The translations under genes were made by a program, and so were the position numbers. From positions 43,997-107,996 of the forward strand of contig JBFJHJ010000005.1 in NCBI GenBank assembly GCA_041613315.1: a stretch of 64,000 bases of DNA, given 5' to 3'. This stretch comes from Gemmatimonadales bacterium (GTDB lineage: Bacteria > Gemmatimonadota > Gemmatimonadetes > Gemmatimonadales > GWC2-71-9). Positions 17,754 to 23,279 of the stretch are shown here, one piece after another. Position 1 is the stretch's first letter. Every line of letters begins with the position of its first letter. The notes beneath the pieces are model-generated. The model saw only the letters and a program-made list of their open reading frames with translations, was not told the origin of the DNA and searched no databases.

Positions 17754-18842
17754 ATGATGACGACACCGAACGGCGAGACCGACACCCCCGTCCGCGTCCT
17801 GGTCGTGGACGACGAGGACGCCTTGCGGAATGCCCTATCCCGCTTCCTCACCGAGCGCGGGTACGAGGTCGCCCAGGCCAGGTCGGGCCGCGACGCCCTC
17901 GAACAGCTCGGAGCCGAGAAGTTCGCGCTCATGCTGCTCGACATCCGCATGCCGGGTCTGAGTGGCATCGACGTCGTGCCCGAGGCGGTGGAGGCCGATC
18001 CCGACTTGGCCATTCTGATGCTCACCGCGATGTCGGACGCCACGAGCGCCGCCGTCTGCATGCAGCGGGGCGCGATGGACTACCTCACGAAGCCAGTCGA
18101 GCTCAACGACCTCGCCAATGCGGTGGGCCGTGCGCTCAAGCGACGCGACACCCTGTTGCAGAATCGACAGATCTCGTCGTGGCTCAAGGAGGAGGTCCAG
18201 CGCCGAACCCGGGAGCTCGAGCGCGAGCGCCGTAAACAGCAGGAGCTCACCGTGGCGACGCTCGAGGCGCTCATCAACGCGCTGGAGGCGAAGAACGTGT
18301 ACCTCGCCGGTCACTCGGCCCGCGTCGCCGCCCTGTGCGCCACGATCGCGCACGAGCTGGAACTAGCCGACGAAGACATCGACCAGATCCGCATGGCGGG
18401 TCGGTTGCACGACCTCGGCAAGATCGGGGTCCGGGAAGAAGTCCTCAACAAGGGTGGCCCGCTCACGGAAGAGGAATATCAGCACGTGCAGTCACACGTC
18501 ACGATCGGGGCGCAGATTCTGTCGCCGTTGACCCACCTGGGGCCGATCGTGGACTACGTGCGACACCACCACGAGCACTGGGACGGCAGCGGCTACCCCG
18601 ACGGCCTGGCAGGCGAGAAAATCCCGATCGGCGCCCGCATCATCGGTGCCGGGGAGGTGTACGACGCGCTGAGCACGGCCCGCCCTTACCAGGACCAGTT
18701 GACGCCCGAAGAGGCCGTCGAACGGTTGCGGGCACTGGTGGGCAAGGTGATCGACCCCGGTGTCATGGAAGCCCTCGCCCGGGCCGTGGCCCGGCGCCAG
18801 ACCTTGGTCTTCATCCACGACGATCACCCGGCGCGGGAATAA
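17754..18842 (+). CDS. Response regulator with HD-GYP phosphodiesterase domain
   Basis: Receiver domain plus GHSARV, LHDLGK, HHEHWDGSGYPDGL. Confidence 0.93.
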   Translation: MMTTPNGETDTPVRVLVVDDEDALRNALSRFLTERGYEVAQARSGRDALEQLGAEKFALMLLDIRMPGLSGIDVVPEAVEADPDLAILMLTAMSDATSAAVCMQRGAMDYLTKPVELNDLANAVGRALKRRDTLLQNRQISSWLKEEVQRRTRELERERRKQQELTVATLEALINALEAKNVYLAGHSARVAALCATIAHELELADEDIDQIRMAGRLHDLGKIGVREEVLNKGGPLTEEEYQHVQSHVTIGAQILSPLTHLGPIVDYVRHHHEHWDGSGYPDGLAGEKIPIGARIIGAGEVYDALSTARPYQDQLTPEEAVERLRALVGKVIDPGVMEALARAVARRQTLVFIHDDHPARE

Positions 18843-18864
18843 CCGGCGCGGCGGCGCGGCGGCG

Positions 18865-19833
18865 GTGCTGGTCCTCGCCGCGTGCGCCCCCGGCGCCCGG
18901 TGGGTGGCGGTGGCTGGCGGGCCCGGGTCACAGCTCCTGGTGTTCTCCGCGAACCTGGACGTCGCCCAGGCCGCGACCGTCTCCTTCACCCCGCAGGACA
19001 CGCTCACCGCGCTGACCTTCGCCGGCGACGGTCAGAGTCTCTATGTCGCCGCCGTGGACGGGGCGGGCGGCGTCCTCGTCCGGGTGGGACGCGGCGGCGG
19101 CGCGGAGACCCGGGTCTCGCTCCCCGTCACGCGGCCGCAGTTTGTCCATCTCGCGCCGCGCGCTACCGCCATCCTCTTGGGCACGGTCGCGACCGGGACG
19201 CCGTCCGGTGCCGGCACGCTCCGCATCGCACGGCCCCGTGATCTCGCGATCGCGGACTCGGTCGGCGTGTGTGTGGGCGCGCCAGTCGGGATCGCGGTCC
19301 ACCCCGACGGCGACCGCGCCTATATCGCCTGCGAGGGCGACGAGGTGGTCGAAGTGGATCTCCGATTACGCACGGCGATCCGACGCGCCACTCCGGCGCC
19401 GGCGAGCGGGTGCCAGCTGCGCGGGCCCGCTCTGTCAGCCAACGGCACGGTGCTGTACGTCAGCTGCGCGGCGACGGGCCAACTCCTCCTGCTGGACCGG
19501 GTGACCCTCACGCCCTTCGACGCGATGCCGGTAGGCCGCGGGATCGGCGCTCCGGTCGTACTACGCCGGCGGCTGCTCCTGCCGCGAGCCGAGGCCGACG
19601 AACTGGTGATCGTGGATCCCCGAGGACGCCAAGTGGTCGCGCGTCTCGCGGCGCCCCACCCCCTCGTGATCGCCGGCGTTGGTGCACGGGCCTACGTGCT
19701 CACGCGCGCACGCGCGCCTGAGCTCTTGACCATCGACGTGGACGCGGCCGTCATCAGGAACCGCACCCGGCTCCCGTTCCCAGCGACCCGTCTCGCCGTG
19801 TGGCCGACGGCAACCCCGGTCATGCGCTGGTAG
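18865..19833 (+). CDS. YncE-like beta-propeller lipoprotein; start uncertain
   Basis: LAAC lipobox; repeats such as GIAVHPDGDRAYI and LSANGTVLYV. Confidence 0.65.
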   Translation: MLVLAACAPGARWVAVAGGPGSQLLVFSANLDVAQAATVSFTPQDTLTALTFAGDGQSLYVAAVDGAGGVLVRVGRGGGAETRVSLPVTRPQFVHLAPRATAILLGTVATGTPSGAGTLRIARPRDLAIADSVGVCVGAPVGIAVHPDGDRAYIACEGDEVVEVDLRLRTAIRRATPAPASGCQLRGPALSANGTVLYVSCAATGQLLLLDRVTLTPFDAMPVGRGIGAPVVLRRRLLLPRAEADELVIVDPRGRQVVARLAAPHPLVIAGVGARAYVLTRARAPELLTIDVDAAVIRNRTRLPFPATRLAVWPTATPVMRW

Positions 19834-20282: not shown

Positions 20283-20363
20283 GGTCCATGATCACGGGGG
20301 TCTCGCGGAGCGGCGTCACCGTAACACCGCGTGGTCGGCGCGTTTCCGCCCACCACAGGCGCC

Positions 20364-20393
20364 GTGACGCGCGTCACAGTGACCCGGGTCACA
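20364..20393. promoter_or_regulatory. Two tandem CRP/FNR-type boxes (GTGA-N6-TCACA)
   Basis: Perfect palindromes GTGACGCGCGTCAC (20364-20377) and GTGACCCGGGTCAC (20379-20392). Confidence 0.55.
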
Positions 20394-20413
20394 GGTGCGC
20401 AGTCCGCACACCC

Positions 20414-20442: not shown

Positions 20443-20531
20443 ACCCTGCCCTGTTCGAACCGGCTTCGGCCTTTCGTGAGGATTGGTGATCCGTGCCCCA
20501 CCACCGCGCCACCACAGCGGGCGTTGATGTC

Positions 20532-21758
20532 GTGAGCAACTTGCACGAGCCGTTTCTCCAGCGCGCCGCGACCGCGTCAACAGACCAAAGCGGAAGCGGC
20601 CACGCGTTGGGCGCGTTCCTGACGCTCCGCCTCGTGGATCAGTTCTTCGGAGCGCTGTACGACGGGCACGCCGACGCGCTCGCCTACCAGACGCAGGCGA
20701 CGCGCGACTTCCTGCGTGAATTGCACCCCCACACGGTCGAAACGAATCACCTCCTTGAGATCGTGCGCGTCGCCGACGGCGTACGTGCTTCCGGCAGCGT
20801 GCGGCTGATGTTCCCGCCGCTGCTCGCGTTTGCGTACTGGCTCGAGCAGGAGCTCCGGCTGGACGAATCGCTCGACGTGCTGGCGGCGACGTTGCAGTTG
20901 AGCAGCGGCGTCGAGGGAGAGGAAGAGGTGTCGGCGAATCTGCAGCGGGGACGCGTGCTACGGCTGCTCGGCCGCTTCCGGGAAGCGACCGACGCGTACG
21001 CGTGGGGCGGGCAAGTGGCGTCGCGACTCGGCGACCGCCATTCCGAGTTGCTGAGCCGGATCGGCCGGGCCATCGTCCTCCAGAAGACGGGCAACCTGCC
21101 CGAGTCGGAGCGGGTGCTGCGCCAGGTGCGCGCGGAAGCGAAGCAGTCGGGCGACCGTGACGCTGAGGCGCGCGCGTGCCACGACCTCGCCGTCGCGCTG
21201 CGGCACATGAACCGCGGCGATGAGGCCGCGCCGCTGGCGTTCCGCGCCTATCAGCTCTACGAGCAGCCGATCCAGCGGATGCGCGCGCTGAGCGATACGG
21301 GCGAGATTCTCAAAGCGATGGGGCATTACGGCGCGGCCAAGGACGCGTTCCTGAGCGTCATGCGCTCGGAGCCGCCCGCCGAGATTCGGTTGCGCACGGG
21401 CGTCGAGTTGTTGGAGCTGAGCGCGCTGTTGCAGGACCGAGTGTCGTTCGAACGCTGGCGGCGGGACGTCGGGGCGCACTATCACCGACTGCCGGCCGAC
21501 GAGTTGGTCGCTTACGAACTCAAGTTGGGCATGGGACTCGCGTCGTTTGAGCAGGAGGCGGAAGGCAAACGACACATCGAACGCGCGATGGTGCTGGCGG
21601 AGCAGTCGGGGCAGGGCCAGTGGGTCTTTCGCGCCGAGGCGGCGCTCGAGGAAATGCAACAGCGCCGCACCGAGTGTGTACCCCGTGCGGCGCCGGTTGC
21701 GGAGCCGGAGCTCCGTACTACGATCGAATCGCTACGCGCGCTGTACGCCGGCGCGTAA
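20532..21758 (+). CDS. Cytoplasmic all-helical TPR protein, candidate peptide receptor; alternative start 20493
   Basis: About 6-7 TPR-like units (ANLQRGRVLRLLGRFREA, ACHDLAVALRHMNRGDEA, ALSDTGEILKAMGHYGAA); no signal peptide or TM helix. Confidence 0.85.
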   Translation: MSNLHEPFLQRAATASTDQSGSGHALGAFLTLRLVDQFFGALYDGHADALAYQTQATRDFLRELHPHTVETNHLLEIVRVADGVRASGSVRLMFPPLLAFAYWLEQELRLDESLDVLAATLQLSSGVEGEEEVSANLQRGRVLRLLGRFREATDAYAWGGQVASRLGDRHSELLSRIGRAIVLQKTGNLPESERVLRQVRAEAKQSGDRDAEARACHDLAVALRHMNRGDEAAPLAFRAYQLYEQPIQRMRALSDTGEILKAMGHYGAAKDAFLSVMRSEPPAEIRLRTGVELLELSALLQDRVSFERWRRDVGAHYHRLPADELVAYELKLGMGLASFEQEAEGKRHIERAMVLAEQSGQGQWVFRAEAALEEMQQRRTECVPRAAPVAEPELRTTIESLRALYAGA

Positions 21759-21781: not shown

Positions 21782-21952
21782 TCAGGTGCCCGAGTTCTGG
21801 CTGCCCGAGGCGTTGAAGCAGCCCAGCGTTGTACCGGAGTTCTGAGAGCCGCTGCAGTCGAACACCGGGTCGGTCGGGGCGGTACATGCGGCGGCTCCAA
21901 GCGCAAGCGACGCGAGTACCGCCATCACGAAGAGACGGCCACGACGGGTCAT
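21782..21952 (-). CDS. 56-aa exported (lipo)peptide with duplicated SGSQNSGT motif, candidate signalling pro-peptide
   Basis: AGGAGGA RBS 5 nt upstream; basic n-region, hydrophobic h-region, LGAAAC lipobox-like site; octapeptide at residues 34-41 and 49-56. Confidence 0.8.
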   Translation of the reverse strand: MTRRGRLFVMAVLASLALGAAACTAPTDPVFDCSGSQNSGTTLGCFNASGSQNSGT

Positions 21953-22045
21953 GCTGATCCTCCTGGGGGTCGGGACGCGCCTTGGCGCTGGGGGCGCCGG
22001 CACTTCCGACTAAGGTGAGGGCCATCTTCCCGCCGGGCTAGGCCG

Positions 22046-22078
22046 TTTTTGGGACATCGGGTGCCTTTTTTGGGACAT
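22046..22078. promoter_or_regulatory. Direct repeat TTTTTGGGACAT x2 with 21-bp period, probable AraC-family operator
   Basis: Copies at 22046-22057 and 22067-22078, between the divergent peptide and AraC genes. Confidence 0.7.
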
Positions 22079-22080
22079 TC

Positions 22081-22887
22081 ATGCTCGTACTGGCCGCCGT
22101 CCCCCGAACTTCTGCCGCAAGGCTTCAGCACGCCGTCGGGAAGCGGTTTCGGTTCCTGATCGCGCAGAGCTGGGCGGAAGCCTTCGAGGCGATCCGCCGG
22201 GAACCGCTCGAGATGGCCGTCATGGACCCGAGCCTCGGCGGCCCGCCCCGGGGGCACGAGATCGAGCGCATCCGGATGCTGTTCCCGTCCCTCCCGCTGC
22301 TGCTCTACACCCGGCTCATTCCTGAGGTGGTACCGGTGCTGCTCCGCCTGGGGCAAGCCGGAATCCGCGAGGTGGTCGTGGCCGGCCACGACGATCACCC
22401 GCGTCGCCTGAGCGACGCCCTCCTCGGCGCGGCCGCCGGCACCCTGTCCCGCCGGCTCATCGAAGAGATGGAAGATGTGCTGGTGGGCTGTCCGGGCGAG
22501 TTAAAGTGGGCGATCGAGACGATGATTCGGGAGCCGGCGTCGTTTCACACAGTGCAGGACTTGGCGGACCGCGCAAGAATGGACCGTCGCACCTGCGCGC
22601 GCTGGTTCACCAAGGCGCAGCTGCCGCCACCGAGCGTCGTGTTGATGGTGTTCCGCGTGGTGTACGCTCACCGTCTGCTCCAGGATCCGGGGTACACCGT
22701 TGAGGACGTCGCGGCGAAGCTCGGGTACGCGAAGGCCCGCTCCTTCACCCAGAACGTGAAGGAAGTCTTCGGCATGACGCCGGGGGAGCTCAAGGTCGCG
22801 TTGAGCACCGAGGAGGCCCTGACGATCGTGCGGGAACGGCTCTTCGGTGAGCCGCCGACGGAAGCCGAATTGGCGAGCGCCTCATGA
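22081..22887 (+). CDS. AraC-family regulator with degenerate receiver-like N-terminal domain
   Basis: Two HTHs (TVQDLADRARMDRRT; TVEDVAAKLGY...FGMTP); N-terminal beta/alpha pattern with MAVMDP and PLLLYT. Confidence 0.88.
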   Translation: MLVLAAVPRTSAARLQHAVGKRFRFLIAQSWAEAFEAIRREPLEMAVMDPSLGGPPRGHEIERIRMLFPSLPLLLYTRLIPEVVPVLLRLGQAGIREVVVAGHDDHPRRLSDALLGAAAGTLSRRLIEEMEDVLVGCPGELKWAIETMIREPASFHTVQDLADRARMDRRTCARWFTKAQLPPPSVVLMVFRVVYAHRLLQDPGYTVEDVAAKLGYAKARSFTQNVKEVFGMTPGELKVALSTEEALTIVRERLFGEPPTEAELASAS

Positions 22888-23279
22888 GGCCCTACGCGAT
22901 CCTCATCGTCGACGACGAGCCCAGCATGCGTCGCGTCCTGCATCGCGCGATCACGATGGCCGGGTACGTCGGTCACACGGCCGCCAGCGGGGAGGAGGCG
23001 TGCGATCTGCTGCGCCACCACCACGTGGACGCGGTTCTCATGGACCTCCGCATGCCGAGCATGTCGGGGCAGACGCTGTACCACGTGATCGCCAGCCAGT
23101 GGCCCCAACTCGCCTCCCGGGTCGTCGTGATGAGCGGCGACAGCGACGCTCAGGACCATGCGGGGTGGCTCGAGCTCCACGCCCTGCCGGTCCTGGACAA
23201 ACCCTTCGAGCTGGGCAACATGCTCGCGGTGCTCCGGCGACTCTTCGTAGGTGAGCGCCGCGAGGCGAACGGACCGTAG
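22884..23279 (+). CDS. Single-domain response regulator
   Basis: ILIVDDE, MDLRMP, MSG, KPF; ATGA overlap with the AraC gene. Confidence 0.9.
   Translation: MRPYAILIVDDEPSMRRVLHRAITMAGYVGHTAASGEEACDLLRHHHVDAVLMDLRMPSMSGQTLYHVIASQWPQLASRVVVMSGDSDAQDHAGWLELHALPVLDKPFELGNMLAVLRRLFVGERREANGP

Follow-up and report, generated by a model that had tools for sequence, protein, structure and literature searches.

We identified the gene for a putative peptide precursor within the window, that is, the whole 64,000-nucleotide stretch of Gemmatimonadales DNA analysed here. The gene lies on the reverse strand at 21782..21952, where translation of a 56-codon ORF agrees with the protein given earlier, and it encodes a predicted micro-lipoprotein of 56 aa with a Shine-Dalgarno sequence, AGGAGG, read 6 nt before the ATG (21959..21964, reverse strand). 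Residues 1-22 resemble a lipoprotein signal, with a basic N-terminus followed by a hydrophobic stretch in our own hydropathy filter, and end in the lipobox A-A-A-Cys23, the predicted site of a lipid anchor (21884..21952, reverse strand; pattern plus hydropathy filter), which we add to the earlier description. The signal looks like SPII rather than SPI type, and the genome contains an LspA family gene for signal peptidase II (Peptidase_A8, E 5.5e-35). A sequence search with the precursor returned itself as the sole match, and neither Pfam nor NCBIfam assigned it to a family above cut-off; its orthologues and other relatives were recovered through synteny only.

The first-pass annotation had reported that this ORF encodes the octapeptide SGSQNSGT twice with divergent codons, and we found exactly this. 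Copy 1 (residues 34-41; 21830..21853, reverse strand) reads AGC GGC TCT CAG AAC TCC GGT ACA and lies between Cys33 and Cys45; copy 2 (residues 49-56; 21785..21808, reverse strand) reads TCG GGC AGC CAG AAC TCG GGC ACC and forms the free C-terminus after F-N-A. The two differ at 5 of 8 codons and 9 of 24 bases and at no residue, and F-[DN] immediately precedes both. In 200,000 shuffles of the 34-residue mature part, there were 8 occurrences of a repeated 6-mer and none of a repeated 8-mer. Cys33 and Cys45 are predicted to close a disulfide loop of 11 residues (21818..21856, reverse strand) under the cysteine rule described below.

Three genes on the forward strand surround the precursor. A TPR protein of 421 aa, the candidate intracellular receptor, is encoded convergently at 20493..21758 (Pfam TPR_12, E 1.1e-9; structural model, fold searches and hydropathy); its true start may be about 12 codons later, and its stop codon is 23 nt from that of the precursor. 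Divergent from the precursor, with starts 128 nt apart, is the gene for an AraC-family regulator of 268 aa at 22081..22887, in which an N-terminal domain of receiver fold is joined to an AraC HTH domain (Pfam HTH_18, E 5.1e-15; model and fold search). Its end is overlapped by an accessory fourth gene at 22884..23279, which encodes a stand-alone receiver (REC) protein of 131 aa with the canonical acidic residues (Pfam Response_reg, E 1.7e-23). Between the precursor and AraC genes, repeat analysis revealed a tandem direct repeat with a period of 21 bp (22039..22077, reverse strand), a predicted AraC operator whose end is separated from the AraC start codon by 3 nt. Facing the precursor gene, at a constant spacing from this operator, is the -10-like hexamer CACCTT (22012..22017, reverse strand), which matches the consensus CAnnTT of 49 close loci.

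This gene order, with the TPR gene convergent, the precursor in the middle, the receiver-fold AraC gene divergent and often a receiver gene behind it, is conserved in Gemmatimonadales. The TPR profile, at a threshold of E<=1e-20, was found in 113 of 201 genomes of the order (family f1 51/86, f2 61/87, f3 0/27), with up to five matches per genome. For the TPR-anchored set we did not use loci from two unpublished genomes, a number of fragments at contig ends or part of the weakest rows; removal of six duplicate loci left 129 TPR matches, 122 of them evaluable. A small convergent ORF with a lipobox is present at 111 of the 122, compared with one in the same-strand control (1/122), and 117 have an AraC gene. 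Of the 11 loci that did not pass this filter, visual inspection reveals a precursor at two, three consist of TPR and AraC genes only, and the rest are orphans or tandem copies. When the search was anchored on AraC, 80 loci were obtained, 13 of which were too short upstream; a precursor was found at 66 of the other 67 (control 0), the TPR gene at all 62 with room for it, and a receiver gene at 73 of the 80. The AraC profile at E<=1e-40 was confined to families f1, f2 and f5 among the 151 genomes of the phylum that were searched, and the named relatives belong to Gemmatimonadota or Gemmatimonadales.

The cassette appears to be lost as a block, since the flanking pilin and MerR genes adjoin in four of five same-family genomes without the TPR gene; in the fifth, the receiver gene alone remains. 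Orphan, diverged TPR genes lie between pilin and MerR at L012, L018 and L138, where the precursor, AraC and receiver genes have been deleted. At L132, L133 and L134, AraC directly follows the TPR gene (about 80-90 nt) and there is no precursor; these loci may be signal-less or eavesdropping variants. Downstream of the cassette, the window carries at 23282-25672 genes for a MerR-like regulator, LemA and a protease that we take to be HtpX-like, a conserved block in family f1 that is independent of the cassette. HtpX and LemA follow the cassette in 69 and 72 of the 80 AraC-anchored loci, respectively. We considered these two proteins as maturation partners and rejected them, as they persist without the cassette and neither occurs in any of the 12 long regions (12/12) from the other family, in which the cassette is present without such flanks. 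MerR, LemA and HtpX, as judged from gene neighbourhoods, represent flanking synteny only. No protease or transporter belonging to the cassette was found. The genome has two SBP_bac_5 genes for peptide-binding ABC proteins, so that peptide ABC uptake would be possible.

Precursors from the TPR-anchored and AraC-anchored loci were pooled into a set of 166 distinct sequences; the genomes overlap and the two sets are not independent, every precursor passing the filter has a lipobox by construction, and one locus (L006) comes from an unpublished genome (G014), on which the conclusions do not hang. A precursor was scored as multi-copy when its C-terminal seven residues occur again in it with no more than one mismatch, so that more divergent copies are excluded. 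By this measure 27 of the 166 are multi-copy, with 2-8 copies of a 7-8-residue unit. Comparison of the first and last copies in these 27 gave 189 codon pairs with 86 synonymous differences and no amino-acid difference, and their C-terminal 7-mers comprise 22 different sequences with a mean identity of 47%. Because of these silent differences and the diversity of the 7-mers, the copies appear to change together within one precursor and to differ between species. The count bears out the earlier suggestion that selection acts on the peptide sequence. The Ser switches between AGY and TCN, which need two base changes each, are weaker evidence than the family-wide count because both Ser positions vary in relatives.

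The commonest multi-copy layout, seen in 20 of the 27, is that of the query, with one copy in the cysteine loop and one free. Head-to-tail 8-mers in L155, L156 and L161 fix an eight-residue unit for the query's group; the repeat unit of the sister group is a 7-mer. An alignment of 23 close precursors gave the shared core Q-[GN]-S-x-[TN], and distant clades carry unrelated motifs ending in Pro-Trp-x. One such distant clade (L119-L129) has motifs of the Pro-Trp-x type, in three copies in L123, and several of its loci have a 20-bp rather than a 21-bp repeat. Precursors with a degenerate loop copy, for example L031 and L198, fall outside the copy test, and loop-only, free-only and double states coexist among them. 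Several paralogues may occur in one genome, each with a different peptide. The commonest lipoboxes of the family are AAAC, LAAC and VAAC.

Extra cysteines beyond the lipobox number 0 in 47 of the 166 precursors and 2 in 119, and never 1 or 3. This rule implies that a disulfide would be formed after export in the precursors with a cysteine pair; a search for DsbB gave no match in this 83%-complete genome. The first-pass annotation had offered a disulfide loop or a RiPP-like core as an alternative to a signal in two copies. The cysteine rule speaks for the loop, which probably belongs to the signalling system and does not compete with it as an explanation. The RiPP-like core is unsupported: as the first-pass annotation had noted, no modifying enzyme lies nearby, and our Pfam and NCBIfam scan found neither a RiPP modifying enzyme nor an RRE protein among the TPR, AraC, REC, MerR, pilin-like, HD-domain regulator and LemA neighbours, the ORF at 18760-19833 being outside the scan.

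The TPR protein appears to be cytoplasmic, with neither a signal nor a membrane segment. In 78 members of the family, hydropathy indicated one hydrophobic N-terminus and no membrane-like window. RRNPP(A) receptors have been delimited as proteins of 250-500 aa that match TPR profiles (PMC10075063), and the 421 aa and above-cut-off TPR match of our protein fit this description. Such receptors adjoin a propeptide of 10-100 aa with a Sec-type signal, and the 56-aa precursor, with its basic and then hydrophobic N-terminus and its lipobox, is of this form. At E<=0.1, Pfam matched generic TPR families only and no HTH family, and NCBIfam none. There was no RRNPP protein among the best 60 of 61 PDB sequence matches. 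The predicted structure is an all-helical solenoid (pLDDT 94). In VIA-align it ranked closest to LGN (Z 24.6), Pins (23.7), phi105 Rap (22.8) and APPBP2 (22.2), followed by RapH (22.0), pLS20 Rap (21.8), MalT (21.5) and RapI (21.5). The top eight rows thus contain four Rap structures (Z 21.5-22.8, rmsd 4.4-6.7, 290-316 residues aligned), and NprR (18.4), AimR (17.2) and PlcR (15.6) came lower. Foldseek placed LGN first and Rap at ranks 9-14, with TM-scores to Rap of only about 0.45. The modelled fold fits a peptide binder and does not imply descent from Rap, because LGN and Pins rank above Rap, the eukaryotic LGN being at least as similar, and RRNPP proteins are missing from the sequence matches. 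The helical N-terminal region contains the conserved R46 and D49, and for most Rap structures the alignment begins only near residue 80. Arg157 is invariant (109/109), and at position 6 of TPR repeat 5 Asp was found in 94 and Asn in 11 of 109 sequences, both residues being placed in the groove by TPR motif position and not from coordinates. In RRNPP receptors a conserved groove Asn grips the peptide backbone.

The C-terminal double HTH of the AraC regulator matched the AdpA DNA-binding domain (rmsd 2.1). The receiver fold of its N-terminal domain rests on the model and the fold search; a profile comparison to the receiver protein next to it showed weak similarity, at a probability of 9%. This domain keeps Asp49 in 97 of 109 sequences, and it is probably no canonical phospho-acceptor because the beta-1 acidic pair and the conserved Lys are absent. 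In genus g24 (L053, L057, L062-L073), AraC seems to have no ATG right after the operator, which suggests a non-standard start codon.

AraC/XylS activators bind tandem direct-repeat sites next to the -35 region, and the operator predicted here is of this kind. A direct repeat at lag 21 separates the precursor and AraC genes in 76 of 111 regions (shuffles: mean 1.2, maximum 3), and one at lag 20 was found in 15 of the 111. Each of the 49 close loci conforms to a consensus in which two copies of the box are succeeded, at a fixed distance on the precursor strand, by CAnnTT, and in most of them no more than a few bases separate the end of the far box from the start of AraC. From clade to clade, the box sequence varies with the recognition helices of AraC, with a contribution from kinship. 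A matrix built from nine relatives located five sites in this genome that score 25.5-54.6 bits, the control reaching 19.6 at most, and four of the five have YAnnnT at the same offset, a feature that is not part of the matrix. One site lies ahead of the precursor; the other four (C4:1009, C4:1101, C22:14715 and C48:4304) are followed by a GMC oxidoreductase, an unannotated protein encoded divergently, a 553-aa lipoprotein-like ORF and a small exported-looking protein. At C4:978-1140 (L139), two operator copies stand back to back with divergent promoters, one towards the GMC oxidoreductase (L139:1052-3730) and one towards the unannotated protein, which has a signal-like segment (L139:143-1198, reverse strand). 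The 553-aa ORF, without a Pfam match, follows a site within L140:4304-6097, and within L141:6716-8437 a site lies ahead of a 127-aa exported-looking protein and a di-haem oxidoreductase (DHOR). In genome G155, the operator pattern matched 8 times compared with 0 in the reversed control, with the hexamer at the exact offset in six and one base closer in two. The strict pattern had no match in G111. A match of the operator pattern in G191 lies inside an apparent long coding region and is probably due to chance, and neither of the two matches in G008 has the hexamer at the exact offset.

Peptide distance was correlated with distance in the TPR body after control for the other parts (partial rho 0.22) and not with distance in AraC (0.001), kin not being independent in this comparison. 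Coevolution specific to the groove was not significant, as the groove columns gave a partial correlation of 0.09 and random column sets reached 0.16. Among 42 sister pairs, groove columns and peptide gave a rho of 0.30 (p 0.054), again with kin that are not independent. In the 13 pairs with an AraC distance below 0.1, the TPR protein has diverged by 19-37%, rising towards the C-terminus. The clearest pair, L066 and L073, is 3% apart in AraC, 11% in the TPR N-terminus and 49% in the TPR body and has different peptides; DNA identity is about 84-95% across the TPR start, operator and AraC and falls to 47-69% across the TPR body and peptide end only. From these alignments, this pair looks like an exchange of a receptor-plus-ligand block, an interpretation drawn from one clear pair and weaker ones. 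With the two genes convergent, the variable body of the TPR gene adjoins the equally variable end of the precursor gene that encodes the peptide, and both would be exchangeable as one block.

We consider it likely, from the genomic evidence, that the cassette is a peptide quorum-sensing loop resembling Rap-Phr, carrying a signal from cell to cell in a phylum with two membranes. With somewhat less assurance, we favor the fuller proposal of an independently evolved peptide quorum-sensing family in Gemmatimonadota, with lipoprotein precursors, linear or disulfide-looped pheromones of 7-8 residues, an intracellular TPR receptor gating a receiver-AraC activator, and a swappable specificity cassette; sequence would then suffice to identify receptor, ligand, operator and regulon. 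In such a loop, the precursor would be exported by Sec/SPII and lipid-anchored, a disulfide would close the Cys33-Cys45 loop, and cleavage would release a 7-8-residue peptide, copy 2 probably being cut after F-N-A. The peptide would re-enter cells via a peptide ABC transporter and bind the TPR groove. By Rap-like logic, the free TPR protein would hold AraC (or the receiver protein) inactive and the peptide would relieve this inhibition. AraC would then bind the 21-bp repeat, activate the precursor promoter and damp its own gene, giving positive feedback and inducing a small regulon of mostly exported proteins and oxidoreductases. The two copies may raise the signal per precursor, with the loop protecting or storing one of them. 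Our confidence falls in the order lipoprotein export, AraC activation, peptide release, uptake, TPR binding and relief of AraC inhibition. Several points count against the quorum-sensing reading: a peptide held by a lipid anchor has to be set free and to pass membranes, the cassette supplies no protease or transporter, DsbB had no match in this genome, the fold match is not specific to Rap, and random column sets follow the peptide as well as the groove columns do.

Alternatively, the same parts might carry a private or short-range signal, the lipopeptide staying anchored or periplasmic and informing the cell that made it of its export capacity or of proteolysis in the envelope, or the TPR protein binding unexported precursor. 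Such self-monitoring would suit a cassette without a release protease and a lipobox in every filtered precursor (by construction), the TPR locus being rarely without one. The precursors also resemble a local lipoprotein in that [TS][AG]P follows the Cys in 94 of 114 of them and also in 13 of 80 putative lipoproteins of this genome. These 13 begin Cys-x(2-6)-[TS]-[AG]-P under a loose filter, and the motif is possibly a lineage-specific sorting signal. However, a self-monitor has little reason to diversify, whereas the species-specific motifs, the block exchange of TPR body and peptide, the distinct peptides of paralogues and the presence of up to 8 copies are expected of intercellular signals, and the paired cysteines point to a function after export. 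We therefore regard a private signal as rather unlikely. It is improbable, too, that the peptide is sensed outside the cell by a membrane histidine kinase encoded elsewhere, which would phosphorylate the stand-alone receiver and leave the TPR protein as an adaptor or phosphatase-like modulator. Disulfide-looped peptides do suit an extracytoplasmic receptor, AraC keeps its receiver Asp (D49 in 97/109), and a canonical receiver gene follows AraC in 66 of the 87 loci with room for it; yet that gene is absent from the other 21 and from many paralogues, no kinase was seen in the cassette, and the peptide sequence tracks the TPR body and not AraC.

A variable peptide with paired cysteines and a co-varying partner might also serve antagonism or kin discrimination, as a microcin-like peptide or RiPP core with the TPR protein as its immunity or binding protein. 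This we find very doubtful, as a modifying enzyme, an exporter and a known toxin family are all absent among the scanned neighbours, the cores are short, neutral and rich in Gly/Ser/Asn, and the pair is coupled to a regulator of its own whose regulon has several sites. Gly/Ser-rich composition would equally be expected of a micro-lipoprotein that has a structural role and low-complexity repeats and whose link to the regulators is chromosomal synteny alone, and one family does embed the locus in conserved synteny with pilin, MerR, LemA and HtpX. However, the cassette is lost as a block, none of the 12 regions from the other family carries LemA or HtpX, and the copies change in concert with no amino-acid difference, so that a structural role is largely refuted and hardly credible.

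The quorum-sensing loop that we favor shares with Rap-Phr, the RRNPPA branch that lacks a DNA-binding domain and is known from Bacillus and its plasmids and phages, a cytoplasmic TPR protein of similar size without HTH, an adjacent small exported precursor whose short C-terminal motif is duplicated internally, numerous paralogues that differ in their peptides, receptors that are orphans and a response-regulator-type partner (PMC9765709 and PMC5199041). It differs in its host, which belongs to Gemmatimonadota and not Bacillota, in its convergent gene order, and in having as partner a dedicated receiver-AraC protein for which there is a separate operator. A cysteine pair is present in 119 of 166 precursors, and no sequence homology to Rap was detected in the TPR protein (Pfam, NCBIfam and the best 60 of 61 PDB matches). 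A lipobox is found throughout our precursors, whereas RRNPPA precursors are mostly otherwise, only 211 of 2,734 predicted propeptides being of SPII type according to PMC9765709; the same paper reports multi-copy propeptides for Rap, NprR, PlcR and AimR. Neither feature is therefore new alone. NprR-NprX, PlcR-PapR and AimR-AimP likewise combine a TPR receptor with a short processed peptide and multi-copy precursors. NprR, PlcR and AimR bind DNA themselves, whereas our TPR protein has no HTH match and the separate AraC is the likely DNA binder. The cassette works like Rap-Phr in the proposed scheme and is not filed as RRNPP, because no sequence homology was detected and the host is not one of the Bacillota.

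The 21-bp direct repeats by the -35 position of a divergent signal gene, abutting the regulator start, recall AraC/XylS activators, and the arrangement of signal gene and regulator resembles the divergent luxR-luxI-type layout for autoinduction. In contrast to both, the N-terminal domain has a receiver fold rather than a sugar- or AHL-binding one, and the signal would be a gene-encoded peptide. Systems of the agr type have a cyclic peptide and an exchangeable hypervariable block. Our cassette is similar in its predicted ring-constrained peptide and in its variable receptor-plus-signal block between conserved DNA, and different in having a predicted disulfide instead of a thiolactone and neither an AgrB-like enzyme nor a membrane kinase in view within the cassette.

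Gemmatimonadota are a common, mostly uncultured phylum of soil and sediment with two membranes. Peptide signalling through cytoplasmic receptors of the RRNPP type has been described for Bacillota and their mobile elements, as far as the available sections of PMC9765709, PMC10075063 and PMC5199041 go, and we found no description of such a cassette in Gemmatimonadota in the literature searched, supplementary tables and most subscription journals aside. If our reading is correct, this phylum-level counterpart means that peptide quorum sensing can operate across an outer membrane, which poses the problem of release and re-import for a precursor with a lipid anchor, and it would provide a first handle on social regulation in Gemmatimonadota. 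The candidate ligand (SGSQNSGT) can be read from the repeats and the promoter from the operator, and the 166 precursor alleles form a ready specificity matrix, so that the proposal is testable in a laboratory host with synthetic peptides and a reporter.

Two minor observations concern the same genome. Just upstream of the TPR gene and of the divergent pilin-like gene, two adjacent palindromes occupy 20363-20394 of the window. Elsewhere, two more short lipoprotein-like ORFs were seen, of 40 aa on contig C26 and of 59 aa on contig C10.
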